The position numbers and the translations under genes are program-made. 64,000 bases of DNA from Candidatus Omnitrophota bacterium (lineage in GTDB: Bacteria > Omnitrophota > Gorgyraeia > Duberdicusellales > 4484-171). This document shows, piece after piece, positions 7,530-44,060 of this stretch. The notes under the pieces are model-generated. The model was not told where the DNA came from and did no database searches. It saw nothing but the letters and a program-made list of their open reading frames with translations. Numbering within the stretch: position 1 is the first letter of the stretch; each line of letters starts with the position of its first letter. The DNA lies in NCBI GenBank assembly GCA_003154195.1, contig PMCS01000005.1, positions 9,449 through 73,448 on the forward strand, written 5' to 3'.

Positions 7530-7700
7530 GCGCCTTCGGCTCGCCTCTCGGCCCGTCTCGCTCGCCTCACGGCGAAGCCGTGGGCCGAAGGCTTGCCGAG
7601 GCGGACGCTCGCCTCTCGGCGAAGTGAGGGAAGCCGAGGGCTTGAAAATGAGTAAGTCTCAAACCCCTTCGCTAACGCTTCAGGGGTAATTCGCGCTATT
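7530..7700. repeat. GC-rich nested-palindrome repeat (ctcgcctctcggcgaag / gccgaggc units), related copy at 16925-16990
   Basis: Direct repetition of tcgctcgcctc(a/t)cggcgaag with paired gccgaggc segments. A similar block is at 16925-16990. Confidence 0.45.
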
Positions 7701-7741: not shown

Positions 7742-9172
7742 TTAAAAAAAACGGGCACCTTTTCGGTCACTTTCGTCTTCTTTAAGTACCTGCAAAAACG
7801 CGTCGACGACTTTTGGGTCAAACTGCTGGCCACTGCCTTTAACCAATTCCGCCATCGCCGCCTCCCGGCTCATTGCCGGCCGATAGGCGCGCGCGCTGGT
7901 CATCGCGTCATAAGCGTCGGCCACGGAAACAACCGCAGCAAAAATATGAATACCGGTACCACTTAACTTATCGGGGTAACCGGAGCCGTCGAAACGCTCG
8001 TGATGGCCCCGGATAATCGCCAGCACCTCTTCGGTAAGCTGAATCGGTTTTAAAATTTCTTCGCCGATAACCGGGTGCTCCCTGATTTTTTTCCACTCCT
8101 CATCGGTAAGCCGCCCGGTCTTATTCAGGATATTTTCGGCCACGGCGAGTTTACCGATATCATGCAAATACGCCGCGTCGCGCAATAACTCGATTTTTTC
8201 CAGAGGAAAACCCATGCGCGCGGCGATTTGAACGGCGTATTCGGCAACACGCTCCGAATGTCCGCAGGTATAAGAATCTTTGGCTTCTAAAATACGAATC
8301 AGCGATTTAATGGCATTATAGAAATAATTGTTGAGCTTGACGCGGGAACTATGAAGGCTCTCTGCCATGCGATTGAAAGAATCCGCCAGGAGGCTTAATT
8401 CGTCATCGCCGGAGATTTTAACCCGGTACTGTAAATTATCTTTAGCGATATTCTCGGTGCCTTTAACTAATTCTTCGATGGGCTTGGTGATACTGCGCGA
8501 TACCAATGTCCCCAGAAACAACGAGAAGATAACCCCGAAAAGTAACACCAGCGTAGCGCGCCCCTGAATTTCTTCCTGGGCCAAATAAACATCGCCGGCC
8601 ATAAGGTCGACTCCCAGAATAGCCGCGGCAGTTCCTTTTTTGTCGCGGATAGGAGCGTATCCGGAAACAAGCTTGCCCCACCGGTCTTCGCCTATTTTCT
8701 TATCCGCCGTCGGCCCGTTAAAAGCACGCATCATCTCGGGAAAATTCGACGGGTTATATTCATCTCCGGGGTATGAGGCCAAACCGTTATTGCCGGGTTC
8801 GCGGGATACCGGTTCAGAATCCACAATATAACATAACCGGCCGGGCCTGACGGCCCTGCTCATAATGTAGATACGGCGTATCGGCGGATTGGCGTTTTTG
8901 ATCGCGTTTATCTGTCCGGATATTTTTTTATATTCCGAAGAATTTACCGCCTCTTTATTCAGCTTGATCTGCGCCAGCATTTCGGCATCAATCGTCAAGG
9001 CCGCCGTTTGCGCGATAATCCGCAGATTATCCCGAAATTGCGCGAACTGAGAATTAAGCGAGTAGCGGTAAATGAGATAATCGCTTAAGGCCCCGGCGCA
9101 GAGCATCGCCACGATAAACACAAAGGCGATTTTCATGCGGAAAGTACTCAAGAATAATCCGGCTTTTTTCAT
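7742..9172 (-). CDS. HD-GYP domain c-di-GMP phosphodiesterase-type sensor protein with N-terminal TM, extracytoplasmic sensor region and HAMP
   Basis: HD...HDIGK...GYP motifs (CGHSERVAEYA...LHDIGKLAV...RFDGSGYPDKL). N-terminal TM MKIAFVFIVAMLCAGAL and a second TM before a HAMP-like linker. Confidence 0.8.
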   Translation of the reverse strand: MKKAGLFLSTFRMKIAFVFIVAMLCAGALSDYLIYRYSLNSQFAQFRDNLRIIAQTAALTIDAEMLAQIKLNKEAVNSSEYKKISGQINAIKNANPPIRRIYIMSRAVRPGRLCYIVDSEPVSREPGNNGLASYPGDEYNPSNFPEMMRAFNGPTADKKIGEDRWGKLVSGYAPIRDKKGTAAAILGVDLMAGDVYLAQEEIQGRATLVLLFGVIFSLFLGTLVSRSITKPIEELVKGTENIAKDNLQYRVKISGDDELSLLADSFNRMAESLHSSRVKLNNYFYNAIKSLIRILEAKDSYTCGHSERVAEYAVQIAARMGFPLEKIELLRDAAYLHDIGKLAVAENILNKTGRLTDEEWKKIREHPVIGEEILKPIQLTEEVLAIIRGHHERFDGSGYPDKLSGTGIHIFAAVVSVADAYDAMTSARAYRPAMSREAAMAELVKGSGQQFDPKVVDAFLQVLKEDESDRKGARFF

Positions 9173-9193
9173 GATTTTGCGGTTTACAAGGCG

Positions 9194-9754
9194 TCACTTC
9201 TGTTTCCAGACTTTGCCCTCTTTTTTTTGAACTTCAAACCAGCAGCCGGCCTTGGCTCTCTGATAATGGTCGATATAAAAAAATTGCTGCGCTCCCTCTA
9301 CCGCTATTTTATTATTTTCGGCGGTGGCTTTATAGATAATCTCGCGATCCCGGTTTTCCGCCTCAACCGCTTGCGTAACTTTTCCCTTGAAATCGTCGGG
9401 CACGCCATCCCTTACCTGCAAAAAAGCGTCAAGCTTTTCACCGACATAACCCTTGACGGAATAATCTTCTATCTCCGGCGCCCTGGCCTTGCGGTGCGCA
9501 ATCGCTTCGTCGACGGCGGCAACCGGCGTTTCCTGAGCATAAGCTTCCGGAACGATTACCTTCAATAAAGAGTTAAGCTGCTTTTCTTTTTTTCCGTAAA
9601 TCCGGTCTTCAATGGACGAGGCTTCTTTCTCCACATGCTGATAAATATCGATACGCATCGTCACATCTACCTTAATCGGCTTAGTCGCCTCGACGCTGAG
9701 TTTCGCGCAGCCTAATACCGCCGCTACCATTGCAATAATCACCAGCTTTTTCAT
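9194..9754 (-). CDS. YdbL-like periplasmic lipoprotein (DUF1318 family)
   Basis: MKKLVIIAMVAAVLGC lipobox. The C-terminal EAENRDREIIYKATAENNKIAVEGAQQF...AKAGCWFEVQKKEGKVWKQK resembles the DUF1318/YdbL signature. Confidence 0.5.
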   Translation of the reverse strand: MKKLVIIAMVAAVLGCAKLSVEATKPIKVDVTMRIDIYQHVEKEASSIEDRIYGKKEKQLNSLLKVIVPEAYAQETPVAAVDEAIAHRKARAPEIEDYSVKGYVGEKLDAFLQVRDGVPDDFKGKVTQAVEAENRDREIIYKATAENNKIAVEGAQQFFYIDHYQRAKAGCWFEVQKKEGKVWKQK

Positions 9755-9900
9755 AGTTAACCTCCCTATCTTACCGTAAAGCCGTAGGATGCCCGCAGCC
9801 TTCGGCTGCTTGGACGTAGGACGCAATAATGATCAAGAACGTTCCTCAAACCCCTCGTCCTTACATCCCAGCGAAGAGAACGTCCCACGTCCTACGGTAT

Positions 9901-11046
9901 TTAGTCACCGCCCGCCCGATGCACCGGAACGTCGATGTCCCGCCTTCCCTGCGCGAAAGAATCGAAAACAATCCGTGTTACCATCTCGTCATTAACCATA
10001 GTAATTTTTATGATTCCACTATTATATGCATAATTTTTAAAACCGTCAATCAGCGTATTGTATTGTGTCTCATTCAACCCGCGGCGTAAAAAACCCAGCG
10101 AATCATCTTTTTTTATATCGATAAACCCCCCGCCGATATTGCTGAAAACCGCTCCCAAGCTGCTGATTTTTCCGTCCGCAATGAATAGATTAAGGCCGGC
10201 GTCAAAAAGCCCATCAGCCCGAAAATCACCTTTGTCCACAAGAATGCCGACCACGCTGTCTAATGACATATCTTTAAGGTTAAGCCCAACCGCGATATCG
10301 CGATAACCGGAAAAAATAATCGCTCCAAAAATTTCCGCCCGGGGGCCGAAGAAGATATTCTGCGCGTCAACTAATATAATATTGCTTCCTTCGATTTTCA
10401 AAGGAACCGTTAACCCTTCGATGCTTCTTTTACCGATTTTTGCCCCGTCAATTTTTAAACTATACAGACCGCCGCCGCAAGGCAAAAGGCTCAAGCGGTT
10501 GATGATTAAATCACGGGAGGAAAAATTAAAATAATCAATCCGCGCGGCCGATATGCCGATTATCCTTTTATCGTCGACTAAACATTTCAAAAATAAAGCG
10601 GCGGCGAACTCCGCCTCGGTTCCGGTATATTTTATTTGTATATTTTTTAGTTCAAGGGGCAGAGGAAAAATATTGAAGCCGGTATTAACTTTAGCGGAAT
10701 TGGTAAATTTAGCGGCTAATCTGCGTTTAAGCCGCGCGGGATTTTTTACGGTAATTTTTGCGCCATCAATACCGACGGCGCTGATTGCCGGAGGAAAAAT
10801 ATTAAAATTTACGCTAAACCTTGATAAAATAACTTCGATATCTTCATCGATAAAACTTAAATTAACCAGGGCCGCGCCCGCCCCTGAAATCTTGGCGGCT
10901 TCGACACGACATTTTCCCCCAAACTCATTTTCGACGAAACCCGTGATATATTTTTTTAACGCCGTTTCTTTATAAAAAAATACAAATACCGCGGACAAGA
11001 CCGCAACCGCCAAAACGATATATCCAATTCTACGCACGCGTTTCAC
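9901..11046 (-). CDS. Membrane-anchored AsmA/YdbH-like protein (putative)
   Basis: N-terminal TM, beta-rich repetitive body, sited immediately upstream of the YdbL-like gene as in ydbH-ydbL arrangements. Weak assignment. Confidence 0.3.
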   Translation of the reverse strand: MKRVRRIGYIVLAVAVLSAVFVFFYKETALKKYITGFVENEFGGKCRVEAAKISGAGAALVNLSFIDEDIEVILSRFSVNFNIFPPAISAVGIDGAKITVKNPARLKRRLAAKFTNSAKVNTGFNIFPLPLELKNIQIKYTGTEAEFAAALFLKCLVDDKRIIGISAARIDYFNFSSRDLIINRLSLLPCGGGLYSLKIDGAKIGKRSIEGLTVPLKIEGSNIILVDAQNIFFGPRAEIFGAIIFSGYRDIAVGLNLKDMSLDSVVGILVDKGDFRADGLFDAGLNLFIADGKISSLGAVFSNIGGGFIDIKKDDSLGFLRRGLNETQYNTLIDGFKNYAYNSGIIKITMVNDEMVTRIVFDSFAQGRRDIDVPVHRAGGD

Positions 11047-11055
11047 GGGGTATGA

Positions 11056-11565
11056 TTAAAGTGAATTACCACCGACTGAAGCCGGATGATTTTCTTTGTT
11101 TTCGATATATTTCACGAAAACAACAAGGTCGTCGCCGTCTTCGTAAAAATCTTTTATCCTGCCCGCCTCCTTAAAATCCTGTTTGAGGTAAAAATTACGC
11201 GCGGCGGAATAGTCGACCCTCGACGACGTTTCAACCCGTAAAATTGCCTTGGGATATTTAGCGGACAAAAAATCCTGCACTTTCGTTATTAATCTTTTGC
11301 CCATGCTCCGGCGCTGGAAATGCCGGTCCACCACAAGCCAATAGATATCCCAGGCAAACTCGGTCATGGGAGTTCTGCCAAAAATGACAAACCCGACCAC
11401 GCGGTCGCCGTCTTTTTCTTCAAAAATGCGGTAAGTGGTACCGGGATTGCCGCGATAATCCTCGACGACTTCGTTTAAGGTATCGATTTCAACCGATTTG
11501 AAAACTTCAGAGTTTCTGGCGATAGTCAGATAGATATCGCCGACGGTCAATTCTTGTTCGTACAT
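11056..11565 (-). CDS. GNAT family N-acetyltransferase
   Basis: WLVVDRHFQRRSMGKRLI...LRVETSSRVDYSAARNFYLKQDF resembles the GNAT acetyl-CoA binding motif region. Confidence 0.75.
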   Translation of the reverse strand: MYEQELTVGDIYLTIARNSEVFKSVEIDTLNEVVEDYRGNPGTTYRIFEEKDGDRVVGFVIFGRTPMTEFAWDIYWLVVDRHFQRRSMGKRLITKVQDFLSAKYPKAILRVETSSRVDYSAARNFYLKQDFKEAGRIKDFYEDGDDLVVFVKYIENKENHPASVGGNSL

Positions 11566-11709
11566 AGCCCCTCCTGAATATCATTGCATTTCTTTACGCA
11601 GTAAACCCCGTTAGAGAACTCCGTTCTCTAACGGTCTGCGCTGACAGTGGCATTAGACCACCGTCAGCTTTATCGCTGGACAACCGCCGCCTAAAGTCGG
11701 CGGCTTTCT

Positions 11710-12702
11710 CTAACGGGGTAAAAATAAAGACCCGATTATTTTTCCGATCACCTGGTTATAGCCATACCCCTTAGAATAGGCTTGCTTCATAAAACCGCTG
11801 TCCCGATTGATATCGGGATTAGGGTTTACATCCAGAACAAAAAGTTCGTTATCTTTCTGGCGCAGATCTACCCGGAAATAGCTGCGGCAGTTTAAAGCTT
11901 TAGCGGCTTCCCGGGATAACGATATTATCCTATTTTTAATATTTTTATCAATATTTTCCTTAAGCGAAGGCATAATTTTTTTAAACTCCAGGGACTGCCG
12001 ATTCCACTTGGAATTATAAGTTAAAAAAGGCGGCAAGCCTTTATAACGGGAGTAATCAATAACGGAAATACCCAGCAATTCATACGGCCAATTGCCCAGA
12101 AACCCCACGCTATACTCTTTACCCCATAAGAATTCCTCTACGATAACACCGTCGGAGAATTGGCGCAGCTTGTCTTTAACGATAGCGGGCAAATGTTTTT
12201 TCGAAGCCACTAAAGAATTATCGTCAATACCGAGGCTGGCGTCTTCGCGCGCCGGCTTGACAAAAACAGGGTAACGCAAAAGCTCCGGTTTAAGATCGCC
12301 TAATGCCTTGATATGCAATCCCGCCGGCACGGCTATACCGCGGCGCGCCATAATCCGTTTAGCCGCGCTTTTATCCAGGCAAGCATTAAGCGTCCGGGAA
12401 CCGTTCCCGGAAAAAGGTATTTTTATTTCCTCTAAAATTTCGACAAAATCTACCTCTTTTTGCGCATCGCCGCTGAAACCCTCGAAAAGATTAAAAATAC
12501 AGCAGGGATTGAACACGGCGATTTTTTTCTTTATTAACCCGCGGGTTAAGAAATCTTTTTTCGTAATCCCCACGGTAACGGCGCTAAAACCATTTTTTAA
12601 AATAGCCCGGCGCACGCAGGTATAACAACGCACGATGTCCCGCATATCCTTGCGCAATAACCTTTCCCGCGGAATAATAATTACTACTTTATTACTATGC
12701 AT
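11710..12702 (-). CDS. ATP-grasp ligase, D-Ala-D-Ala ligase-like family
   Basis: LDKSAAKRIMARRGIAVPAG...YPVFVKPAREDASLGI...VIVEEFLWGKEYSVGFLGN...VDLR...LFVLDVNPNPD. The start is probably the internal ATG at 12702, which overlaps the upstream stop in a TAATG arrangement. Confidence 0.7.
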   Translation of the reverse strand: MHSNKVVIIIPRERLLRKDMRDIVRCYTCVRRAILKNGFSAVTVGITKKDFLTRGLIKKKIAVFNPCCIFNLFEGFSGDAQKEVDFVEILEEIKIPFSGNGSRTLNACLDKSAAKRIMARRGIAVPAGLHIKALGDLKPELLRYPVFVKPAREDASLGIDDNSLVASKKHLPAIVKDKLRQFSDGVIVEEFLWGKEYSVGFLGNWPYELLGISVIDYSRYKGLPPFLTYNSKWNRQSLEFKKIMPSLKENIDKNIKNRIISLSREAAKALNCRSYFRVDLRQKDNELFVLDVNPNPDINRDSGFMKQAYSKGYGYNQVIGKIIGSLFLPR

Positions 12703-14150
12703 TAAATTACCAAAAGCCTCCATGGCGCCACGTATACGGAAAAAACTTTGCCCATTAAAATTATCCGGCTGAAAATATATTCGGGATTGCCCAGGCTCCA
12801 AAGGGGAATCTTCAGAAACAATTCATTGCCCCGGGAAATCAATTCAGCCCCGGGAATACGAAATGCCTTGCGATTGGCGTAAGCGATAACCCTCTTGTTT
12901 TTCGCCCGCAAAAATAGTTTCGGCATTTCGCTGAAATTCCGGTCCTGCCGGTAACCTAAAAGATGGATATGCGCCCATATCTGCGGCGCGACATTTTTGT
13001 AAAAAGAAATCTTCAGATACAGGAAACCGGGATCGCGGCGCAAATAAATATCCGAGATAACTTTCGAGTACAATTCTCTCGGATAACGACGGTCATTTTT
13101 AGTCAAAACGAGCTGCGGCTGGGTATAAAACAGTTCGTTCTTACGCACGAAACTTAAAAGATAGGATTTTTTGAAAGATAGCTGGCTCGTATATGCGAAA
13201 AGGGCTTTATACTTATTTTTTATTTCGTTATCCGTTAAAACTAATTTAATCCAGTTTTTATCTCCTGATTCCAAATCGGGCGGTGTCTCAAGCTCTTCGC
13301 CGGGAAAATACTGCTGGCGGCTCGGCCAATTTATTTTATGAACAAGGTACAGATAAACCACGGGGTCTTTCAACGTACGCCGTAAATCGAGCAACGCGAC
13401 GTTAAGATAAACAAAAGCGCTGCGGTGATCGGGATTAGTATCCTGGGGACTGGAAACAAAAATTTTTGTCGGCTTAAACGCGCTGAGGATATTTTTAAAA
13501 TCATTCAGAATGCTCCCGCCGATGTAAGGCGCACCGTAAGATAACGCGCTTTCGTAAGGAACCTTGTTGAGATGCGTTAGGAGGCTATGGAACGGATTTT
13601 CTTTATTCCAAAAATTCAAGAGAATGGCTTCAGTAAACCGATCCGGATAACCTAAAAATATAATGTCTCCCCCCGTAATCCCCAGAGAAGCCGTGGCGCT
13701 GACAGCTTCTCTCTGCCTTATTTTTCCTATCGTCACAAATCCGCTCCGGAATAGCGCTAATTGTTTTTTGTAAAAAAGAAAAGAAATCTCATTATAATCG
13801 CCGTTGGTAAAATATGCCACCTTAACGGCGGCTTTAGCGTTCAATGCCTTCTGGATAACGCCGCCTGAAGCGATGATTTCGTCATCCGGATGAGGGGCGA
13901 TTATCAAAACCCTATCCTGCGCGGTAAAATTTAAATCAGACTGGGCAAAGCAAGCGCTAAAAATTCCAAATAACAAATTCCAAATAACAAATAAATACCA
14001 AATTCCAATTACCGAATGGCCAAAACAGCTTCTGCTCTGGATATTGGAACTTTGGTTATTGGAATTTTCCCGCCCCTTATTATTCTGGCTTAGCGGGATC
14101 CCGCAAGAGACGGGAATTTGGGATTTGGGATTTGGGATTTGGGATTTCAT
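12702..14150 (-). CDS. LmbE/PIG-L family N-acetylglucosaminyl deacetylase-like protein with N-terminal TM helix
   Basis: VLIIAPHPDDEIIASGG motif, N-terminal hydrophobic helix. The first codons are encoded by the caaatccc tandem repeat (MKSQIPNPKSQIP). Confidence 0.7.
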   Translation of the reverse strand: MKSQIPNPKSQIPVSCGIPLSQNNKGRENSNNQSSNIQSRSCFGHSVIGIWYLFVIWNLLFGIFSACFAQSDLNFTAQDRVLIIAPHPDDEIIASGGVIQKALNAKAAVKVAYFTNGDYNEISFLFYKKQLALFRSGFVTIGKIRQREAVSATASLGITGGDIIFLGYPDRFTEAILLNFWNKENPFHSLLTHLNKVPYESALSYGAPYIGGSILNDFKNILSAFKPTKIFVSSPQDTNPDHRSAFVYLNVALLDLRRTLKDPVVYLYLVHKINWPSRQQYFPGEELETPPDLESGDKNWIKLVLTDNEIKNKYKALFAYTSQLSFKKSYLLSFVRKNELFYTQPQLVLTKNDRRYPRELYSKVISDIYLRRDPGFLYLKISFYKNVAPQIWAHIHLLGYRQDRNFSEMPKLFLRAKNKRVIAYANRKAFRIPGAELISRGNELFLKIPLWSLGNPEYIFSRIILMGKVFSVYVAPWRLLVI

Positions 14151-14174
14151 AATGTTTCGATCAAATATAATTTT

Positions 14175-15194
14175 CTACTTTAACCGGACTCCATATCTCG
14201 CCAGCGCTTCTTTTAATATTATTCTCACCAGTTTTGAATAATTCCCGCCGTTAAGCCGGTAAAGAATCGGCAAATCACTGTAACACGGGCTAAGCCCGGC
14301 AAGAGGGTTGATATCGATGATACGGGGGATATTGTTTTGATCGAGCCGGAAATCAATGCGGGCTATATCGCGCAACTCCAGAGCGCGAAAAGCGCATAAA
14401 GCGTAGCGGGTGATTAATCCTCGCGCCGGAGAAGGAATAACCATCGGCGGCTCGTATTTTATTTTTTCCTTCCAGTCTCGCTTATTTTCGATGGAGTATA
14501 AAAAAAACCGCGGGGATTTTTCTTTGGGAGCAATACGCATCATCCCCAACAAACGGCTCTTGTTTGCGTTGCCGCATACTGCCGCCGTGATTTCATCTCC
14601 CGGCAAAAATTCTTCGATTACCGCCGGCTGCTTATATTTTTTTATAACAAATCCGACGCGTTTTTTCAGAGAACCGTAATCAACGGCCACGGAATTAAGA
14701 AATATCCCCTTGGAAGACCCTTCCCAGCGGGGTTTAACAATGAAATTTTTGCCTTCGTCAAAAATTTCATTGCCGAAGGGAAATAACCGGCTATCGTTTA
14801 CCAAATACATTTGAGGCACAGGAATAACATTAGCGCGTAAAATAACATTGGTGAGACATTTATCGAGAGTAATTCCCAGAGCAATCGGGTCGGAACCGGA
14901 ATAGGGCATCCTAAGACTTTCCAGAATACAAGGAACCTGAGATTCCCGGCCGCGGCCGGCTCCGATTCCTTCGGCAAGATTAAACACAAAATCAATTTTT
15001 TCACGCGCGAGTTTAGCGAAAAAATTACCGTCTTGTTCTAAGCGGACAGTCTTAAAACCATAACGCTTGATTTCGGTTTCCACCGCCCGGATGGTTTCTA
15101 TTTCGTCATACTCCTCGCAGGAATCATCCGAAGTATTTTTGCGTTTAAGATTGTAGGCAATACCGATAGTTTTGATAGATAATTTTTTAGGCAT
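14175..15194 (-). CDS. ATP-grasp ligase, D-Ala-D-Ala ligase-like family
   Basis: IDFVFNLAEGIGAGRGRESQVPCILESLRMPYSGS (Ddl-type N-domain), FIVKPRWEGSSKGI, VIEEFLPGDEITAAVCGN, IDINPLAGL. Confidence 0.7.
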   Translation of the reverse strand: MPKKLSIKTIGIAYNLKRKNTSDDSCEEYDEIETIRAVETEIKRYGFKTVRLEQDGNFFAKLAREKIDFVFNLAEGIGAGRGRESQVPCILESLRMPYSGSDPIALGITLDKCLTNVILRANVIPVPQMYLVNDSRLFPFGNEIFDEGKNFIVKPRWEGSSKGIFLNSVAVDYGSLKKRVGFVIKKYKQPAVIEEFLPGDEITAAVCGNANKSRLLGMMRIAPKEKSPRFFLYSIENKRDWKEKIKYEPPMVIPSPARGLITRYALCAFRALELRDIARIDFRLDQNNIPRIIDINPLAGLSPCYSDLPILYRLNGGNYSKLVRIILKEALARYGVRLK

Positions 15195-15437
15195 ACTATT
15201 TATAAAAAGTAGAGAGTCGACCTGCCGGCAGGGAGGGCAGAGTAAAGAGATAAATACTCGTTGATCGTTGAAAGGTTGCGTAACTCGTTACGGTATTCGG
15301 TAAAAAGACGGTAACCGTATAACGACAGCCGATTCCAGCTACGCAGCCGACAGCCGATTGACATATTTCTCTCTACTCTCTACTCTCTGACAAAGGCAGT
15401 ATTTTACCACGCCTTTTAAAAATATAAAGAGACATTT
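15195..15437 (-). promoter_or_regulatory. Structured leader or inverted-repeat region upstream of the ATP-grasp/LmbE/ATP-grasp/GNAT genes
   Basis: Inverted repeat gtagagagtcgac ... ctctctactctctactctctg ~150 bp apart. Internal palindromes cctgccggcagg and cgttacggt...accgtaacg. Direct repeats acagccgatt. Confidence 0.3.
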
Positions 15438-15484
15438 AATAAAAAAGCGCTGACTGTATCCTCGTCGGCACAATCAGCGCTTTG
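15438..15484 (-). terminator. Putative rho-independent terminator downstream of kamA-like gene
   Basis: Hairpin aaagcgctgactg...caatcagcgcttt, followed by TTTTTTATT on the minus strand. Further hairpins lie at 15545-15598. Confidence 0.45.
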
Positions 15485-15599
15485 CTTCCTAACGTATTTT
15501 ACTAACCTATGTTTTCCCGCTTCCTTCGTTCTCGCCATTTGCTACAAAACGGCAAATGGCGAAGTCTCGCCAATTTGATTAACAAATTGGCGGACTTCT

Positions 15600-16763
15600 T
15601 TACCCTTTCGGACTGTAGTAAAAAAATGTTTCGTTCTTGTAATTACGCAACGTAACCCCATCGGGAGACATAGAAACCAGATAATTAGGGCTTATGGGAA
15701 TTTTTCCTTTACCGTCAATACCATCAACGACATACGTCGGTATGCACAACCCGCCGGTATGGCCTCTCATTTTTTCTAAAATCTCGATACCGCGCCAGAC
15801 GCTGGTCCGAAAATGCCAGGCACCCACCACCGGATCGCATTGATACATATAATATGGCCTTACCCTTATCGCCTGTAACTTCCGGCACAATTCGATCATG
15901 ACCTGTGGATCGTCGTTAACGCCGCGCAACAATACCGACTGGTTACTTATCGGTATGCCGCACCTCTGAAGCTTACCGCAAGCGGCAATTGAATCGGGAT
16001 TTACCTCCCGGGGATGATTAAACTGCACATTAACCCAAAGATTATGATATTTCTCAAGGACTTTACATAGATTGTCGTCGATACGCTCAGGCATTACCAC
16101 CGGCGACCTTGTCCCGATGCGCACAACTTCCACGTTGGTACGCCGCACCACCGACGATAAAATATAATCCAGCCTTTCGGTCGGCAAGGTAAGCGGATCG
16201 CCGCCGGATATAATAACTTCCCGTATTTGCGGATTATCCTGAACATAAGTTAACGCCAAATCGATATCTTTCAATGTCGGTTCGGCAAGCTTAGTATGCC
16301 AAAGCCTCTTCCTTGTACAATGACGGCAATACATAAAGCATTTTCCCGTCACCAGAAGCAAAACTCTGTCGGGATAACGATGCACCAAGCACGGCACGGG
16401 AGAAGTTTTTTCTTCCGACAACGGGTCTATCCGTTCATGCTCTTCCTGCCTTATTTCTTCCGGCGAAGGCACACATTGCATTCGTATTGGGTCTTTAGTA
16501 TCGGCATAATCTTTGATCAGTGAAAAATAATGAGGGGTAATCCGCATATGGTATGTTTTAGCGACTTGCCTTAGGTTGGTTTTGTCTTCTTCGCTTAAAG
16601 ACAGGTAACGAGACAGGTCCTCGACACTCCTGAGGGAATTCTTATACGCGGTATGCCAATTTTGGCAAGAAGTAATCACTAAAACCGCATTGTCACTGCC
16701 GGATTCTTCGATGCTACCGCCAGGCTCCTCGTCAACCGAGCCGACATTTTTTTTATTTTCCAT
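15600..16763 (-). CDS. kamA: KamA-family radical SAM lysine 2,3-aminomutase
   Basis: CxxxCxxC cluster in LLLVTGKCFMYCRHCTRKRLW, ISGGDPLTL, and KamA-type C-terminal region. SD AAGGAGG precedes the ATG. Confidence 0.75.
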   Translation of the reverse strand: MENKKNVGSVDEEPGGSIEESGSDNAVLVITSCQNWHTAYKNSLRSVEDLSRYLSLSEEDKTNLRQVAKTYHMRITPHYFSLIKDYADTKDPIRMQCVPSPEEIRQEEHERIDPLSEEKTSPVPCLVHRYPDRVLLLVTGKCFMYCRHCTRKRLWHTKLAEPTLKDIDLALTYVQDNPQIREVIISGGDPLTLPTERLDYILSSVVRRTNVEVVRIGTRSPVVMPERIDDNLCKVLEKYHNLWVNVQFNHPREVNPDSIAACGKLQRCGIPISNQSVLLRGVNDDPQVMIELCRKLQAIRVRPYYMYQCDPVVGAWHFRTSVWRGIEILEKMRGHTGGLCIPTYVVDGIDGKGKIPISPNYLVSMSPDGVTLRNYKNETFFYYSPKG

Positions 16764-17082
16764 TTAGCTATCATCCTCCTTTATTTTTTACTTCATAAAC
16801 AATAAAACATTTTATCCGCTTCGCGGATAATAAAATGGCATGCCGATTAAAAAATATTTTTGAATAACCGATTGTTTTTTCTTTTCTCTTGATCATCCGC
16901 CTAACCGGAAAAATTGCTGCCTGCTCGCAGCGCTCAGTCCGTCTCGCTCGCCTCTCGGCGAAGCTGATGGCCTTCGCCTTGCCGAGGCTGACGCGAATCA
17001 AAACGAACCGTTAGCGCAGGCGTGACATATTTTTTCGGTTAGGGTGATTTTTATTTTTTGCTTCGCAAAAAATATAAAGCTA

Positions 17083-17613
17083 TTATTCTCCACCCAAATC
17101 AGTAGCATTCGAACCGGCATCAGCAACGTTCCCGCCTGCCGCGCCACCCGTTTTCTCGTCTACGCCGGCGCCTTCTTCCTCTTCAAAAACGTAATTATAA
17201 TTAGTCGCCTTTAACCCCGTAGCTGTTTTTTCCACGGTTATCTCGACTTTATCCCCTACTTCCAGATAGGAATCGTCTAAAAATTCCTTAGTCGCGGCGA
17301 TTTTTGTGTCATTGACCACGAGGTAACTGCCATCTTCGGCTATTTCCTTCACTGTTCCTTTTATAATATTATCCTTATTGGCCTCTTTACTCGCCGCAGG
17401 CGCCTCTTTGACCGCCACAGGAGCTTCCTTGGCCTCTTTAACTACGACAGGCGCTTCCTTCTTCGCGGGTTCCACTGCCGGAGCTGCCGCCGCGCCGCTA
17501 CCGGATGTTCCAGCGACCGGAGTTTCCGTACTAGTATTTTGCGCCGATACTAAACCACAAAAAAATGTCACCACGACTGTAAATAAAAAAAATGTCCGAA
17601 TTCTTCCTGCCAT
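17083..17613 (-). CDS. Secreted protein with KEAPV(A/V)VKEA repeats and a DUF5666-like small beta domain
   Basis: Signal peptide MAGRIRTFFLFTVVVTFFCGLVSA and tandem KEAKEAPVAVKEAP repeats. The C-terminal YLVVNDTKIAATKEFLDDSYLEVGDKVEITV motif is DUF5666-like. Confidence 0.45.
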   Translation of the reverse strand: MAGRIRTFFLFTVVVTFFCGLVSAQNTSTETPVAGTSGSGAAAAPAVEPAKKEAPVVVKEAKEAPVAVKEAPAASKEANKDNIIKGTVKEIAEDGSYLVVNDTKIAATKEFLDDSYLEVGDKVEITVEKTATGLKATNYNYVFEEEEGAGVDEKTGGAAGGNVADAGSNATDLGGE

Positions 17614-17633
17614 AACTCCTCCTTTTTTAAAAT

Positions 17634-17897
17634 CTATTCGCCGTCTTCCTCATCGGTGTCGTCCGCATCATCGTCGTCATCATCTTCTTCATCATCATAG
17701 TCTTCTTCTTCATTATCTTTTTCTTCAAGAGTCGCATCGTTGTCTTGCGAAACTTTTAATATCGGCGGATCGAGCTCAATAATCTTTAGCTCCGCGTAAC
17801 AATTAGGGCAAACGGTAGTATCGCCTATTTCCAAATCGCCCTCCAAGCCAAAACCTTCCTCACACCCGGGGCATTTGATTTTTTTCGCGCGCGCCAT
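17634..17897 (-). CDS. LysW-like amino-group carrier protein (zinc-ribbon with long polyacidic C-terminal tail ending EDGE)
   Basis: KCPGCEEGFGLEGDLEIGDTTVCPNCYAELKIIELDPPILK resembles T. thermophilus LysW (CPECGAELRLENPELGELVVCEDCGAELEVVGLDPLRLE, ending EDWGE). Here a ~40-aa D/E-rich tail ends ...DEEDGE. Confidence 0.6.
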   Translation of the reverse strand: MARAKKIKCPGCEEGFGLEGDLEIGDTTVCPNCYAELKIIELDPPILKVSQDNDATLEEKDNEEEDYDDEEDDDDDDADDTDEEDGE

Positions 17898-17909
17898 CCC
17901 ATCCTCCCT

Positions 17910-18107
17910 TTAGATGAGCCCTTCTGCTTTTAACTCCCTCTCTGCCTCGATCCAATCCTGAAACGCACTGTCGGCAGACCTCCCTTTTTGCTCCCAGATA
18001 TAATATGCCCTTTCCTTTATTTTCTCTAAATCATCGTAAGAATACAAAGACGCTATTTCCCGCGCGTTTTTGTTTTTTTCTTTTTTCTTCATCCTCGGCC
18101 CCTCCAA
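17910..18107 (-). CDS. DUF2934-family small protein
   Basis: IKERAYYIWEQKGRSADSAFQDWIEAEREL motif. Confidence 0.5.
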   Translation of the reverse strand: MEGPRMKKKEKNKNAREIASLYSYDDLEKIKERAYYIWEQKGRSADSAFQDWIEAERELKAEGLI

Positions 18108-18129
18108 ATTTGATTATATAAAAAATATA

Positions 18130-18245
18130 CCTCCTGTCAAATATTTTTTAATGAGACTTCGCCGAAATCAAGCCCAAAGGGCACAGATTGAGGCGGTAGT
18201 CGAATTACCCTGAGCGACCGAAGGGAGTCGAAGGGTAATGAGCTT
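18130..18245. repeat. Intergenic repeat element, family 2 (modules TAATTCGACTACCGCCTC and CGAAGTCTCATTA), reverse-orientation copy
   Basis: Contains aatgagacttcg and gaggcggtagtcgaatta, the reverse complements of modules seen at 41515-41671 and 62860-62990. Confidence 0.55.
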
Positions 18246-18303
18246 GGAACTTCACTGTAACGACAATCATACTCTATCACAAAAAAAATGAAAAATCCAC
18301 TTT

Positions 18304-19305
18304 TTAGAAAGAAAAAATCTTATTAAAATAACTTGTATAAAACATAACAATCCTATAGCCGATGTAAGCGGCGATGAATATATAAAGAAAAACCGGCACA
18401 ACCGTAACCATTACCGCTACGGCGACGGCATTTTCTTTTTCGCACAGGGACGCCATAGACCCAAGCATTTTATCGATACTGCCGCTCTTTTCTCCCGCCG
18501 TAATCATCCCGATCATATTCGCGCTAAACAGGCGGGTCGCGCTGAATGCTTCGCTTATGCCGCCTCCCCGCTCGATAACCGCTAACCCCCGGAGAATCGA
18601 TTTTTCCACAATACTATTGCCGCAAGCGCCGGCCGCAATCTTCCACCCCTCGATTATGGTTACCCCTGAAGCGCACAGGCATTCCAACGCGCGTACAAAA
18701 CGCGTGGCGACAAACCGGCGCGTTAACTTTCCCCATAACGGAACATTAACGCTAAACAAATCATAAATATTTTTAAACCGGGCCTGCTTAAAAACTTTGC
18801 GTATCCCGAATAACAAAAAAACTATACCATACAGCGGTAATAAAACTTTTAACAACTCGCGCAAATACCCGGCTAAGCCGCAAGTTACCAATGACGTTAT
18901 CGGCAAAACAAAAACGGCAATGTGCAGAAGCAGCACCGGATACGCCAAACCGAAAACAAGGGACTGAAACATCGAGTAGTCTTTTTCAAGATAATCGGCG
19001 ATACGGTTTAACCCATCAGCCAGCCTTCCGGCGGTTTCGCTGTAACGAACGATACTTATATGCCACGCGGGAGAAAAATCCGGCAAAGCGGAAAGCCCGT
19101 CCGCCAGAGTCCCGCCACGCGAGATATGGCGCTTAAGCCGCGCGGCAATATCCTTGATGCGTCCGTTTCCGTGGCCTTGTAAAATATCCATCGCGGCAAC
19201 GACATCAACGCCGGAAATCACCAGCGTCGCCAATTCGCGGTAAAAAACCATTAATATTTTTGTGCGGTTTAAAAACATCGCTTTTTGTTTTATCGTCAAG
19301 GGCAA
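18304..19305 (-). CDS. Type II secretion system F / PilC-family inner-membrane platform protein (two T2SSF repeats)
   Basis: Two halves each with GxTxxEG-type motif (SGVDVVAAMDIL...; ASGVTIIEGWKIAAGACGN...ERGGGISEAF) and TM segments. Confidence 0.65.
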   Translation of the reverse strand: MPLTIKQKAMFLNRTKILMVFYRELATLVISGVDVVAAMDILQGHGNGRIKDIAARLKRHISRGGTLADGLSALPDFSPAWHISIVRYSETAGRLADGLNRIADYLEKDYSMFQSLVFGLAYPVLLLHIAVFVLPITSLVTCGLAGYLRELLKVLLPLYGIVFLLFGIRKVFKQARFKNIYDLFSVNVPLWGKLTRRFVATRFVRALECLCASGVTIIEGWKIAAGACGNSIVEKSILRGLAVIERGGGISEAFSATRLFSANMIGMITAGEKSGSIDKMLGSMASLCEKENAVAVAVMVTVVPVFLYIFIAAYIGYRIVMFYTSYFNKIFSF

Positions 19306-19429
19306 GAAAATACTTATTTTCGGTATGAAATTTTTTACGCGGCAAAAAATAAATATCAGGTAAGATTCTGCGAGTTGGCGCTAAAAAAATAGTTATCCGA
19401 CAATTGGTTACACCCTGCCGCCAAACTTA

Positions 19430-20104
19430 TCAATTGCCGAGAGGGCCGAATGTTCCGCCGAAATCCGCGCCAAGGTCGTCGACGTGCGGCAAATTATTGT
19501 TCTGCAAGGACTCCCGGCAAAACTTTTGAACCAGATCCTTATCTCCCCGCGTAAGCAAAAATTCAATCCTCCCCGCGATCTTCTCCTGCTCTCTTTCGAA
19601 AACAGCATCGATAAGCAAAATAAATACCTTGCCGCAATTGCTAATCGACTTTAAGATTTCGTCTGATGAACCCACTGTTAAATCAGGAGGAGAAGGAACG
19701 ATTATCGTCCTCAAAAATACGCTTAACGCGGTTACGTAAGCGCTTAACACAATGTTGCCGATTTCCTTGAGCGCGGACATACCTAGCTCCGTAAGCGTCG
19801 TTCCTTCCGATAGATGGTAGCCGGGATAGCAGATACTCATAAACTTAGCGGCACTGTCGCTATCAAAGGTTAAAAGAAGTTTGCCGTTTAAACCGGAGAG
19901 GATATCGCACTGCACGCTTACAAAACTATCATGCTTGCCGCGATAAGCGCGTAAAAGATTATCGTCGTGAAAAGGTAAAATCGAAGGCATTAAAACCTTG
20001 ATTTCTTTATTAAGCATTTTCGTAAGCGCGTTTGTGCTGTAGTTAGCGGCAACGCTTCCTATTTCTTTCAGAATATCTAATTCCATCATGCCCCAATCTT
20101 CCAT
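19430..20104 (-). CDS. CheC-like CheY-P phosphatase family protein (CheC/CheX/FliY)
   Basis: ELDILKEIGSVAANYSTNALTKMLNKEI and second repeat LKEIGNIVLSAYVTALS. The likely start is the internal ATG at 20104, preceded by a GGGGGA SD. Confidence 0.6.
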   Translation of the reverse strand: MEDWGMMELDILKEIGSVAANYSTNALTKMLNKEIKVLMPSILPFHDDNLLRAYRGKHDSFVSVQCDILSGLNGKLLLTFDSDSAAKFMSICYPGYHLSEGTTLTELGMSALKEIGNIVLSAYVTALSVFLRTIIVPSPPDLTVGSSDEILKSISNCGKVFILLIDAVFEREQEKIAGRIEFLLTRGDKDLVQKFCRESLQNNNLPHVDDLGADFGGTFGPLGN

Positions 20105-20329
20105 CTTAATCCCCCTATATCTTGACAAAGGTTCTGTAAAAAACGAACCACAGAGTTCACAGAGAAATCGGCAAATTTACCGAATTAGAAAAACCGATTG
20201 TTTTTATTTTACCTCTATCCGGCGAAACAAACAAGCAGAAAATTTTTGCAGGAGAAAACGGTCATTAATAAAAAATGCCTCGACACAGCTGCGAGGCAAG
20301 ATTTTTTTACGATAGCTTGAAGCTAACCG

Positions 20330-20400
20330 AAAAAATGCCTGCCTGCTGCCGCACTCGACCCTGGCCAATAGCAGGCATAACGCATTTTTCCGGTTAGAAA
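20330..20400 (-). terminator. GC-rich hairpin flanked by A/T runs, probable terminator after GYD gene
   Basis: aaaaaatgcctgcctgctgccgcactcgaccctggccaatagcaggcataacgcattttt. The stems gcctgct/agcaggc and aatgc/gcatt are flanked by A and T runs. Confidence 0.4.
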
Positions 20401-20427
20401 ATATATTTTTGAACAAAAAGATTGGTT

Positions 20428-20706
20428 CTACCCGGCCATCCGGTCAAACTCTTCGATACTGATCGCCGGAGAAGTGGTAAAGCCGATACCGGTTAACCTG
20501 GTAACCGCTATTGACGCCTTCATCGCCTCTGCGGTTCCGGGAAAATCCACGATAAACGCCAGGTCATACTTTCCTAAAACAGCATACATCGCGCTGACCT
20601 TACCGCCCGCCTTTTCCATCGTCTCAACGGCCTTCTTGGTGCGGTCAGCGGCAATACCCTTAACTGCTTCTGCCGAGTATCTACCGAGCATAATAAATTT
20701 TGCCAT
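20428..20706 (-). CDS. GYD domain protein
   Basis: MAKFIMLGRYSAEAVKGI...GKYDLAFIVDFP typical GYD family. AGGAGG SD upstream. Confidence 0.7.
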   Translation of the reverse strand: MAKFIMLGRYSAEAVKGIAADRTKKAVETMEKAGGKVSAMYAVLGKYDLAFIVDFPGTAEAMKASIAVTRLTGIGFTTSPAISIEEFDRMAG

Positions 20707-35619: not shown

Positions 35620-35785
35620 CTTGGTTAGGGCAAGGGTAATGATGCCGGTATGGGCTAAAGACTTGGCTAGGCAAGGGCCATGATGCCAGTATGGGTTAGG
35701 GTTAGGGCTGTAAATTTGTATTAGCCCTGACCTTTGCCTTTACCCAAACGGGCTTCTTAACCCTGGCCTTTACCAATCTTTTTTC
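35620..35785. repeat. Palindromic intergenic repeat element family 1, copy 6 (with duplicated left arm)
   Basis: ggttagggcaagggtaatgatgccggtatgggctaaag + ggcaagggccatgatgccagtatgggttagggttagggctgtaaatttgtattagccctgacctttgcctttacccaaacgggcttcttaaccctggcc. Confidence 0.7.
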
Positions 35786-43290: not shown

Positions 43291-44016
43291 TCAGTTTCGC
43301 GGCTCAATCTTTTTAATCCGGAAAAACAGCTTAAGATAACTGAAAAGAGTATCGAGCTTTTTCATTTTGGAAAACCCGCGCTTTCGGTTAATAAAGGTAA
43401 TCGGCACCTCGCGCATGGCATACCCCAGCCAATGGGCGCGCGCCAGAAATTCGACATAAAAATCAAATTTTTTCGCGGCCAGTAAAGGCGTAATTTTCTC
43501 CACAACGCCGCGCCTGATCAATCGGTACCCGGAAGTTTTATCGCGGACCCGCAACGCCGCAAAAACAGTTAAGAAGTCGTTAACCCGCTTGCTCAAGAAA
43601 AGTTTCCACGCCGGCATGCCGTAAATCCTGGCGCCCTTTACATAGCGGGAGCCGATTACGATATCCGCCCCGGTGCCTTTCAATGCATCGAAAAAATATC
43701 CCAACTCCTCCGGCTGGTGGTTGAGGTCGGCGTCCATCATGAGAACGCAATCGCAATCTTTTGATATATTTTCCAAACCGGTCCGGCAAGCGCGGCCGGC
43801 GCCGGCCGGAACTTCTGAATAAATAATACGCAAATCCTTGATATCCTCCCGGCGGGCGGTTTCTTCGAGAACCTCAACCCCCCTATGATTTCCATCAACA
43901 ACAAACAAAAATTTCGCCGTAACGCCGAGTTTACGAAGCGCAGCGTTCAAGCGGCTAAACAATTCTCCCAAATTTTCTTCTTCATTATAAGCGGTGATAA
44001 CAGCTTCGACAATCAT
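43291..44016 (-). CDS. GT2 family polyprenyl-phosphate glycosyltransferase (DPM1/ArnC-like)
   Basis: VVDGNHRG...DADLNHQPEEL (DxD)...GADIVIGSRY. Confidence 0.75.
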   Translation of the reverse strand: MIVEAVITAYNEEENLGELFSRLNAALRKLGVTAKFLFVVDGNHRGVEVLEETARREDIKDLRIIYSEVPAGAGRACRTGLENISKDCDCVLMMDADLNHQPEELGYFFDALKGTGADIVIGSRYVKGARIYGMPAWKLFLSKRVNDFLTVFAALRVRDKTSGYRLIRRGVVEKITPLLAAKKFDFYVEFLARAHWLGYAMREVPITFINRKRGFSKMKKLDTLFSYLKLFFRIKKIEPRN

Positions 44017-44060
44017 CGTATATTTTTCCGTAGTGAATCACCGCCACCTTCGTTGGTGAT

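Follow-up and report, generated by a model that had tools for sequence, protein, structure and literature searches.

The analysed stretch of DNA (64 kb, hereafter the window) comes from an Omnitrophota contig. Every gene named in the initial annotation was found there at the coordinates it gave, and all of them lie on the minus strand. The features are listed below in their order on that strand.

18113..18140, minus strand: sigma-70-type promoter-like site, TTGACA-16-TATAAT (12/12 consensus match), 5' of the DUF2934 gene
17910..18092, minus strand: DUF2934 small protein, 60 aa from the ATG at 18092 (PF11154, E 1e-11)
17634..17897, minus strand: LysW-homologous Cys4 zinc ribbon with polyacidic tail (profile homology, predicted fold)
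17083..17613, minus strand: protein X, signal-peptide-bearing (weak DUF5666)
16764..17082, minus strand: structured spacer between X and kamA, several hairpins (MFE -103 kcal/mol, z -5.1)
15600..16763, minus strand: KamA-family radical SAM/PLP lysine 2,3-aminomutase, 387 aa (TIGR00238, TIGR03820)
15441..15483, minus strand: intrinsic-terminator-like hairpin with U6, 3' of kamA (long stem, then UUUUUU)
14175..15194, minus strand: ATP-grasp ligase 1 (AG1), Ddl-like (family and structure matches)
12702..14150, minus strand: LmbE/PIG-L family deacetylase, between AG1 and AG2 (PF02585, 74 bits)
about 11710..12720, minus strand: ATP-grasp ligase 2 (AG2), Ddl-like (family and structure matches)
11056..11565, minus strand: GNAT acetyltransferase, RimI-like (rimI model), the last conserved gene of the module

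The 87-aa zinc-ribbon protein is truly homologous to the zinc ribbon of LysW. It consists of a Cys4 domain (residues 1–50) and a 37-residue disordered polyacidic tail ending in EEDGE. It matched PF21344 with 27.6 bits (cut-off 27) and T. thermophilus LysW (3wwl) with an E value of 5e-4 as a single sequence and 3.8e-12 as a family profile, and the six best PDB matches of its AF2 model were LysW chains only (rmsd 0.9–1.7 A), so that the resemblance first noticed by eye is more than chance. Against the NCBIfam lysW equivalog it scored 19.9 bits, below the cut-off of 53.2. The unusually long acidic tail is also real, with D or E at 26 of its 37 positions. In LysW the defining attachment site is the C-terminal Glu of the EDWGE motif, and the loading enzymes are of the ATP-grasp class (PMC10433800). 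The initial annotation had equated the ending EDGE with EDWGE, but the Trp is absent, and such a match is expected by chance since 70% of the tail is D/E. No conserved C-terminal Glu or EDWGE was found in any ribbon relative located next to a kamA or LmbE gene. The endings seen are EEF, EDEF, EDKW, YFDD, DEGA, DDDQ and EDGE, those beside kamA including EEF, EDKW, YFDD and DDQ. The protein falls in a widespread acidic-tail family in which both the tail length and the last residue vary.

With LysW/ArgW and their partners LysX/ArgX in the AmCP pathways of Thermus, Sulfolobus, Thermococcus and haloarchaea, the locus shares a homologous Cys4 zinc-ribbon domain with an acidic extension on its C-terminal side, and the presence of ATP-grasp genes near the ribbon gene. 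However, the tail is 3–4 times longer here and conserves neither EDWGE nor a terminal Glu, the adjoining ATP-grasps are Ddl-type without GSWGR, the LysZ/Y/J/K genes are absent, and the most consistent partner of the ribbon gene encodes a small secreted protein rather than a ligase. The reported absence of LysXZYJK was borne out: none of the large ORFs in the 64 kb window encodes a LysX/Z/Y/J/K-type domain. Lacking the other hallmarks of a carrier, the zinc ribbon is probably not a classical one, and it may act as a protein-docking or charge-mimicking factor and not as a covalent carrier.

The ribbon gene would form, with those of DUF2934 and protein X, a small operon having its own promoter-like site, the sole perfect consensus match within 10900–18400 (promoters were called by consensus matching and signal peptides by inspection). 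The DUF2934 gene precedes the ribbon in the subclade that carries LmbE (L001, L005, L006, L013, L020, L063 and L078–L085) and is missing at L007, L008, L015, L018, L027 and L028. Protein X, which follows the ribbon in most ribbon-bearing Omnitrophota loci, has a signal peptide, a Pro/Ala/Lys-rich linker, a conserved beta-rich domain of ~65 aa and an acidic C-terminus. Its description as a DUF5666-like secreted protein holds for the signal peptide, but the DUF5666 match is weak and below cut-off (E 0.018). In the spacer that follows, one hairpin lies immediately 3' of the X stop codon, and there are terminator-like sites at 16931–16916 and 16830–16812. The kamA-AG1 spacer (405 nt, 15195–15599) holds both a terminator-like hairpin and a second promoter-like site at 15428–15401. 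The terminator hairpin and the structured leader noticed earlier thus both exist (hairpin plus U-run at 15483–15441; spacer folds with z -6.3 for kamA-AG1 and -5.1 for X-kamA), and neither structured spacer matched an Rfam family. These are candidate signals for separate transcription of the ribbon operon and the enzyme genes.

The aminomutase scored 307 bits against the KamA subfamily TIGR00238 (cut-off 199) and 458 bits, below the cut-off of 525, against the AblA model TIGR03820, well above the 240 bits obtained with the EpmB model. It matched the C. subterminale lysine 2,3-aminomutase (LAM) 2a5h with an E value of 2e-112. Its C-terminus is short, without the C-terminal end of LAM. The columns of LAM Asp293, Asp330 and Lys337 are conserved, which points to lysine as the substrate. 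The genetic link to the first ligase is close. In seven genomes KamA and AG1 form one ORF, in two domain orders: KamA precedes AG1 in single ORFs of 718–814 aa at L015, L018, L023, L025, L027 and L028, and the order is reversed in a Spirochaetales MAG (L067). At L035, L048 and L060 the kamA gene is directly downstream of the ligases, after the GNAT gene in the first two.

Both ligases have Ddl structures as their closest structural relatives by sequence (E 1e-17), with scores of about half the cut-offs of the Ddl families. Neither a RimK/LysX match nor the GSWGR motif was found in AG1 or AG2, whose loops read GSS.G-type or EDASLG in its place. As in D-Ala-D-Ala ligase and the ATP-grasp L-amino-acid ligases, their best sequence relatives, the catalytic Arg, Asp, Asn, Gly and Ser are kept in AG1 (Ddl R255, D257, N272, G276 and S281), which is, to judge from these residues, catalytically intact. 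AG1 differs from Ddl in having Asp for Leu282, within an invariant YSDLP, a replacement that fits a cationic nucleophile, and in a distinctive N-terminal DSxEEYDE motif. Also unlike Ddl, it is coupled to KamA, by fusion or by adjacency, and makes with AG2 (28% identity) a paralogous pair accompanied by a GNAT. The start of AG2 is uncertain, its ORF extending to 12801 and its orthologues having 328–334 aa.

Scanning genomes with AG1 yielded 65 loci, whose neighbours were annotated by local HMMs. The only conserved ones were AG1/AG2 and GNAT, plus KamA in Omnitrophota; AG2 follows AG1 in 48 of the 65, and in most loci of Omnitrophota and Synergistota the GNAT gene comes next after AG2. KamA, AG1, AG2 and GNAT make up a conserved unit across 53 related loci, seen in Omnitrophota, Synergistota and Thermodesulfobacteriota, in agreement with the initial proposal of an undescribed functional set. 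KamA was not found within 10 kb in 14 of the 23 Synergistota loci. Among the 53 loci whose upstream flank reached 1.5 kb or more (adjacency being scored at the locus itself), the zinc ribbon was directly upstream in nine, all Omnitrophota-type, and the module stood without it in the other 44; it was found in the local flank of none of the 23 Synergistota loci and none of the nine from other phyla. Conversely, the ribbon occurs without the module at L007, L009, L010 and L011. The ribbon is thus syntenic with the enzymes in some other genomes, so that the initial annotation's own ground for discarding the carrier idea, i.e., that they are never syntenic, does not apply, but the association is confined to a minority of loci.

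In the LmbE subclade, synteny reaches clearly unrelated genes (PEGA, GT2, patatin, BioY, HAD), and the proximity of ribbon and module there carries little functional weight. However, several diverged Omnitrophota lineages have the ribbon, with or without X, immediately 5' of kamA (the LmbE clade, the window, L008, L015/L027/L028 and L018), with only about 40–65% ribbon identity among these lineages and a gap of 24 bp to the KamA-AG1 fusion in L018, so a functional tie is possible in that phylum. An Omnitrophota-only carrier, on whose tail carboxylates AG1 and/or AG2 would load lysine or beta-lysine to be modified and then released, would account for this recurrence in at least five diverged lineages, for the true LysW homology and fold, and for the enzyme class, LysW being loaded by ATP-grasps (PMC10433800). 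It is nevertheless improbable given the unconserved C-terminal Glu/EDWGE, the Ddl-type ligases, the module widespread without an adjacent ribbon and the ribbon without the module, the unrelated genes sharing the LmbE-subclade synteny, and a candidate release enzyme that looks exported and is dispensable. As a general pathway, the load, modify and release scheme was not sustained.

That release enzyme was to be LmbE. Its true start is probably near 14012, and it has an extra C-terminal domain. All of the 8/8 aligned homologues share the HPDDE motif and a signal-peptide-like N-terminus, and the protein is probably exported. The family is large in Omnitrophota and also found in unrelated gene contexts, whereas at AG1-AG2 loci it is confined to one Omnitrophota subclade. 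L007 keeps the ribbon, X, LmbE, a 72-aa membrane protein and patatin but misses KamA, AG1 and AG2; L008 keeps these three and misses LmbE. LmbE is therefore dispensable to the ligases, which together with its exported-looking N-terminus speaks against a role in release; it would have been inserted between the two ligase genes in a single subclade and is not obligatory for the enzyme set. Streptothricins, which carry beta-lysine chains, are inactivated by a GNAT, and one could imagine here an antibiotic or predatory product, a cationic oligopeptide of beta-lysine, against which GNAT protects the producer, which the exported LmbE re-activates outside and which the acidic tail, apt to bind a polycation, could buffer. 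But GNAT and the exported-looking LmbE share a cluster in this window only: all other LmbE loci are without GNAT and all other GNAT loci without LmbE. With no conserved exporter and a deacetylase family common in unrelated contexts, we consider such a product very unlikely.

The GNAT matched the rimI model (E 3e-11, below that model's cut-off), and among PDB entries it comes closest to 2r7h, a "putative D-alanine N-acetyltransferase" (E 5e-15). AblA and AblB synthesise the osmolyte N-epsilon-acetyl-beta-lysine in methanogens and some bacteria, and the earlier remark that KamA plus a GNAT recalls this pair is nearer to the reading we favour than the carrier idea. There is in both cases a KamA-type aminomutase with lysine-binding Asp residues and a GNAT in one cluster, and a possible osmoadaptive context. 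However, two ATP-grasps lie between the genes here and are central to the module, the GNAT resembles RimI and has no match to an AblB-named family at E <= 0.01, and KamA is under the AblA equivalog cut-off and without the LAM C-terminal end. That KamA, whose best score is to the AblA model, and the GNAT of its cluster simply make N-epsilon-acetyl-beta-lysine, both ATP-grasp genes being unrelated passengers, deserves very little credence, since no members of the module are better conserved than the two ligases, which always stand between GNAT and KamA, and since KamA and AG1 share a single ORF in seven genomes.

Alternatively, the module could modify a macromolecule, i.e., a translation factor, a ribosomal protein or a cell-wall peptide precursor, and not make a free solute. 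RimK modifies S6 and RimI S18, and the KamA paralogue EpmB feeds, with the ligase EpmA, the beta-lysylation of EF-P, a system that resembles ours in the genetic coupling of an aminomutase to the ligase consuming its beta-lysine, although the ligase here is an ATP-grasp and not a LysRS paralogue. Consistent with such a target are the RimI and D-alanine N-acetyltransferase affinities of the GNAT, the closeness of both ligases to Ddl and the absence, in the neighbour survey of AG1 loci, of any exporter or importer gene conserved beside the module. The same survey, however, found no candidate macromolecular target gene conserved there, the family matches are all far below equivalog cut-offs and KamA is much nearer AblA/LAM than EpmB (458 vs 240 bits). 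In Thermovirgaceae the neighbours are of another kind: the order Na+/H+ antiporter, KamA, PH domain protein, MscS channel, AG1-AG2-GNAT is kept in 6–7 loci, a hint, from one family, of an osmolyte. We regard a macromolecular target as rather unlikely.

Homologies, gene order, fusions, presence/absence patterns and conserved residues lead us to favour, with moderate confidence, three separable units in the interval (the ribbon operon, KamA-AG1-AG2-GNAT and the inserted LmbE) over a single pathway. In the enzyme set KamA would convert L-lysine to beta-lysine, which AG1 would take as its direct substrate for ATP-dependent amide ligation. A second amide bond would be made by AG2, and the RimI-like GNAT would N-acetylate an amino group that is still free. 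These steps predict a small N-acetylated di- or tripeptide containing beta-lysine, assembled in the cytoplasm with no carrier protein involved, and its most likely role would be that of a compatible solute; substrates, product and physiological role are all putative. A parallel is the NAGGN pathway, in which Ngg (a bifunctional GNAT and ATP-grasp enzyme) and AsnO produce N-acetylglutaminylglutamine amide. The logic of an acetyltransferase and an ATP-grasp peptide bond for an N-acetylated small-peptide osmolyte is shared, but the ATP-grasp clade and the substrates are different, NAGGN has no aminomutase and the module here no amidotransferase. On balance, then, the locus probably holds a carrier-independent pathway to a beta-lysine peptide that is N-acetylated and may serve as an osmolyte, beside a distinct operon encoding the LysW homologue with its acidic tail, and KamA-AG1-AG2-GNAT is an uncharacterised enzyme set conserved in several phyla without the zinc ribbon.

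The best reading of the cluster is that of three units: the ribbon operon (genes for a DUF2934 protein, for the ribbon, i.e., the LysW-like zinc-ribbon protein with a polyacidic tail, and for X, a small signal-peptide protein), the module KamA-AG1-AG2-GNAT (a lysine 2,3-aminomutase family protein, two Ddl-like ATP-grasp ligases and an acetyltransferase), from which the ribbon operon would stand apart, and an inserted PIG-L deacetylase gene, LmbE. The gene inventory of the initial annotation was correct, since every gene listed in it was found, all of them on the minus strand:

18140-18113, minus strand, promoter-like site of the sigma-70 type, perfect match
18092-17910, minus strand, DUF2934 protein gene
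17897-17634, minus strand, ribbon gene (87 aa), 12 nt after the DUF2934 gene
17613-17083, minus strand, X gene (176 aa), 20 nt after the ribbon gene
16764-17082, X-kamA spacer of 319 nt, hairpin-rich (z -5.1)
16763-15600, minus strand, KamA-family aminomutase gene (387 aa)
15195-15599, kamA-AG1 spacer of 405 nt (z -6.3)
15483-15441, minus strand, long hairpin plus U6 inside the kamA-AG1 spacer
15428-15401, minus strand, promoter-like site inside the kamA-AG1 spacer
15194-14175, minus strand, AG1 gene (ATP-grasp)
14150-12702, minus strand, LmbE/PIG-L gene
about 12720-11710, minus strand, AG2 gene (ATP-grasp)
11565-11056, minus strand, GNAT gene

The hairpin plus U6 at 15483-15441 is a predicted terminator downstream of kamA. 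In X, a signal peptide and a linker rich in Pro, Ala and Lys accompany a conserved domain of ~65 residues that matches DUF5666 weakly. An Rfam search of 9000-20500 gave no riboswitch or other family, neither in the "structured leader" that had been described nor in either spacer, and the only matches of the spacers within the window by BLAST were short hairpin repeats. Copies of short segments from the X-kamA spacer lie at 7553-7578 and 7606-7624 and point to a small hairpin element that is repeated. Hairpin-rich spacers loosen the cluster, with lengths of 144-405 nt (11566-11709, 15195-15599, 16764-17082 and 18108-18303), and genes overlap or are fused in relatives at places where the window has long spacers. 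GNAT is followed on its 3' side, after a gap of 9 nt, by a 381-aa protein without Pfam match, which has a membrane anchor at its N-terminus, and by a DUF1318 protein (together at 9194-11046); neither was found beside the module in any other locus. Elsewhere in the window, a large glycan or unusual-sugar cluster (43291-62807, minus strand) codes for two DegT-type aminotransferases, a class I/II aminotransferase, a DHQ-synthase-like enzyme, a TPP enzyme, two HpcH/HpaI aldolase-like proteins, an SDR, an epimerase/dehydratase, a GNAT, a nucleotidyltransferase, several glycosyltransferases and a flippase. Two large ORFs, of 1213 aa (35784-39425) and 611 aa (46763-48598), had no Pfam match at E <= 1e-3 / 1e-4.

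The two zinc-ribbon alignments contained no conserved stretch of 7-10 columns and the genome scan was therefore anchored on the AG1 alignment, taking one genome per species. This gave 65 loci that were annotated by local phmmer and hmmsearch. KamA-AG1-AG2-GNAT was a conserved unit in Omnitrophota, Candidatus Auribacter and Thermodesulfobacteriota. In Synergistota the conserved unit was AG1-AG2-GNAT, with KamA directly downstream (three loci: L035, L048 and L060), about 5 kb upstream or beyond the fetched region. Clustering of the flanking ORFs in either group revealed no family present in most loci beyond AG1/AG2, GNAT and, in Omnitrophota, KamA; the other clusters were smaller and confined to particular lineages, or were short ORFs that overlap the module on the opposite strand. 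KamA and AG1 form a single polypeptide in six Omnitrophota genomes and, in reversed order, in one Spirochaetales genome. These two fusions are independent and link the aminomutase to AG1. Around LmbE homologues, relatives at ~50% identity (loci L001, L005 and L006) keep the whole order DUF2934, ribbon, X, KamA, AG1, LmbE, AG2. One further locus (L007) has kept ribbon, X, LmbE, a 72-aa membrane protein and a patatin and has lost KamA, AG1 and AG2, while another (L008) has kept ribbon, X, KamA, AG1, AG2, the 72-aa protein and the patatin and has no LmbE. KamA, AG1 and AG2 are therefore kept or lost together and LmbE varies independently. The small membrane protein (71-72 aa, two helices, with a MamI Pfam match in L005) is conserved at L001:12485-12700 and equivalent positions of L005, L006, L007 and L008, and is followed on its 3' side by a patatin-like lipase, BioY, a HAD hydrolase and a domainless protein of ~1065 aa. 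These genes make up an extended syntenic stretch on the downstream side of AG2 in a single Omnitrophota clade.

The resemblance of the ribbon to LysW, first noticed by eye, holds for the globular domain, on which Pfam, the family profile and the predicted fold all agree. The score against PF21344 was just over the cut-off (27.6 vs. 27 bits), and the single sequence matched Thermus thermophilus LysW (3wwl) at E 5e-4. A word-indexed homologue search recovered its own cluster alone; an exhaustive one gave 175 cluster representatives, and a profile of 41 of them matched LysW of Thermus (3wwl, E 3.8e-12) and Thermococcus (5k2m_E, E 4.2e-11) over almost the full LysW length. A match of this profile to the designed zinc finger 2i13 was discarded as a repeat artefact of KCPECGKSF words. 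The AF2 model is a confident five-stranded ribbon (pLDDT 77-90) with a disordered tail, and its best six Foldseek matches in the PDB were all LysW chains (rmsd 0.9-1.7 Å). Three features define LysW and ArgW (PMC10433800): the cysteines of the zinc site, an EDWGE at the C-terminus in which the final Glu is the site of attachment, and a partner, LysX/ArgX, that bears GSWGR and reads EDWGE. The Cys4 zinc-ribbon domain is shared by the window protein, but the terminus is variable in its family. The EDGE ending that had been equated with EDWGE is part of EEDGE, without Trp, closing a tail in which 26 of 37 residues are D or E. Ribbons adjacent to kamA in other genomes end in EEF, EDEF, EDKW, YFDD, DEGA or DDDQ, and of 115 short representatives of the family 15 end in E and 31 in F, Y or W. 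The curated lysW equivalog TIGR01206 was not reached (19.9 bits, cut-off 53.2). LysX, LysZ, LysY, LysJ and LysK are absent from the window as had been reported: no amino-acid kinase, semialdehyde dehydrogenase, class-III aminotransferase or M20 domain was found by Pfam in its large ORFs, and GSWGR is missing from AG1, AG2 and every reading frame. Judged from its sequences, the family lacks the features that make LysW a carrier, and a more fitting description is that of a zinc ribbon homologous to LysW whose long disordered tail is polyacidic and sprinkled with aromatic residues. Since the tail ending varies, its sequence argues for a role in docking or as a charge mimic rather than as a covalent carrier.

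Conservation of the neighborhood had been proposed as a check of the carrier, and it held only in part. The order of ribbon, KamA, ligases and LmbE is kept in some Omnitrophota, but a ribbon lies directly upstream of kamA in only nine of the 53 loci for which 1.5 kb or more of upstream sequence was available, each of the nine being of Omnitrophota type, and upstream of the module in none of the 23 Synergistota loci. A metagenome scan with a narrow ribbon alignment as query returned a single clade, with nine further loci that were all one synteny block (PEGA, GT2, DUF2934, ribbon, X, KamA, AG1, LmbE, AG2, 72-aa protein, patatin). In this clade synteny reaches plainly unrelated genes and the adjacency of ribbon and kamA has therefore little functional weight. 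Ribbon-family genes also occur in other settings, next to a 289-aa radical SAM protein in one Omnitrophota genome (L009, 8833-10107) and, in two distant genomes (L010, 8001-8616, and L011, 8001-9865), followed by small signal-peptide CarboxypepD_reg proteins; ribbon plus a small secreted beta-rich protein may be the more general pairing. We consider it improbable that ribbon and ligases are facultatively linked in Omnitrophota, and keep a small place for this because a rough AG1 tree puts the adjacency in several diverged Omnitrophota lineages and in one locus (L018) the ribbon lies 24 bp from a KamA-AG1 fusion, with no X between. In such a case the acidic tail would serve, in part of the Omnitrophota, as acceptor or scaffold for AG1/AG2, with beta-lysine supplied by the adjacent or fused KamA and joined to tail carboxylates, free substrates being used in other phyla. 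We give this version little chance; if true, it would amount to chemistry on beta-amino acids tethered to a protein, with no relation to the EDWGE/LysX mechanism.

KamA aligned with the lysine 2,3-aminomutase of C. subterminale (2a5h) at E 2e-112, with CRHCTRK of the radical SAM motif CxxxCxxC aligned and the columns of Asp293, Asp330 and Lys337 kept; the two Asp are those that bind the epsilon-amino group of lysine, and Lys337 corresponds to the PLP lysine. The score against the subfamily TIGR00238 was 307 bits (cut-off 199). AblA is defined by the cut-off of TIGR03820 and a full LAM C-terminal domain, and the window protein reaches neither: it scored 458.5 bits (cut-off 525.4), matched LAM_C over positions 1-57 of 127 only and stops at about residue 370 of 2a5h, missing the C-terminal stretch, whereas copies from Synergistota have the full length of about 438 aa. 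A glutamate or arginine 2,3-aminomutase was rejected, given that the AblA model scored higher than the glutamate, arginine and EpmB models and both lysine-binding Asp are kept. The likely reaction is the conversion of lysine to beta-lysine.

Both ligases turned out to be Ddl-like when classified, with Pfam, NCBIfam and PDB matches to Ddl/Van types only and none to RimK, LysX or ArgX. They differ from LysX/ArgX, which are RimK-type ATP-grasps with GSWGR. They share 28% identity, and at 128 (AG1) and 109 bits (AG2) against NF002378 (cut-off 243) they reach about half of the Ddl cut-offs. ATP-grasp catalytic residues are common to AG1 and D-alanine--D-alanine ligase, but neither AG1 nor AG2 attains the Ddl family cut-off. 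In the alignment of AG1 to the Ddl 4zqi (numbering by hand from alignment offsets) R255, D257, N272, G276 and S281 are kept and E270 is D. Leu282 of Ddl is replaced by Asp, within an invariant YSDLP, and an Asp here would be suited to a positively charged nucleophile, beta-lysine for example. GNAT matched only RimI and AAC(6') models in NCBIfam. In AblAB the AblB-type acetyltransferase adjoins ablA, whereas the RimI-like GNAT of the window is separated from KamA by AG1, LmbE and AG2. Its best solved relative is 2r7h (E 5e-15), deposited by structural genomics as "putative D-alanine N-acetyltransferase"; this label may stem from a neighborhood with a Ddl-like gene in the source genome, in which case the module would exist in a cultured organism.

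LmbE scored 74 bits against PF02585 (cut-off 28), with the P-H-P-D-D-E of its metal-binding HPDDE invariant in the homologue alignment, and reached none of the bacillithiol/mycothiol equivalogs. It has an extra C-terminal domain besides PIG-L and no sequence relatives in the PDB at E <= 0.01. All eight aligned homologues begin with a short basic-hydrophobic-small stretch, a Sec signal peptide by inspection. The first ~45 codons of the window ORF (14013-14150) code for a direct peptide repeat, KSQIPNPKSQIP, without counterpart in these homologues, and the true start is for this reason probably just before the signal peptide, about 45 codons downstream of the annotated one. LmbE as a cytoplasmic release enzyme was rejected for its signal-peptide-like N-terminus, and the role of releasing deacylase once assigned to it is also disfavored by its presence or absence independently of the ligases. 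Its closest homologues are all from Omnitrophota, distant ones lie in unrelated gene contexts, and the position between AG1 and AG2 is restricted to one Omnitrophota clade and the window. The best reading of its sequence and distribution is that LmbE, apparently exported, is a lineage-specific insertion.

A pathway in which a LysW-like carrier is loaded, modified and released by the neighboring enzymes is thus not supported: EDWGE is not conserved, the ligases are of Ddl type and the module is widespread without an adjacent ribbon. Gene order, fusions, co-loss and residue conservation are observed, whereas substrates, product and role are inferred for the module, which we read as a cytoplasmic, carrier-independent pathway. 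KamA would form beta-lysine, two ATP-dependent amide bonds would follow and then one N-acetylation, giving an N-acetylated beta-lysine di- or tripeptide. Compatible solutes are known from the AblAB and NAGGN pathways. In Thermovirgaceae MAGs (L052:2998-12552, also L049, L050, L054, L056 and L061) an antiporter-KamA-MscS order is found just upstream of AG1-AG2-GNAT, in full a Na+/H+ antiporter, full-length KamA (438 aa), a bacterial PH-domain protein, an MscS-type channel, an opposite-strand NAGPA-domain protein and AG1-AG2-GNAT, which looks like an osmoadaptation locus. By analogy with both precedents, and because of these loci, we suggest that the product may be a compatible solute.

KamA, two Ddl-like ATP-grasps and GNAT are a compact four-gene module, conserved in at least three phyla and uncharacterised; our literature search found no paper on it or on acidic-tail LysW homologues. 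The module should yield a new beta-lysine-containing metabolite, and both peptides of beta-amino acids and new compatible solutes are of interest to biochemistry and biotechnology, with the fused KamA-AG1 enzymes as ready-made expression candidates. The acidic-tail LysW homologues are in turn a large mis-annotated family, spread over many phyla and frequently auto-named "lysine biosynthesis protein LysW" or "alpha-aminoadipate carrier protein", and automatic annotation of this sort can lead to lysine pathways being wrongly called in uncultured phyla.
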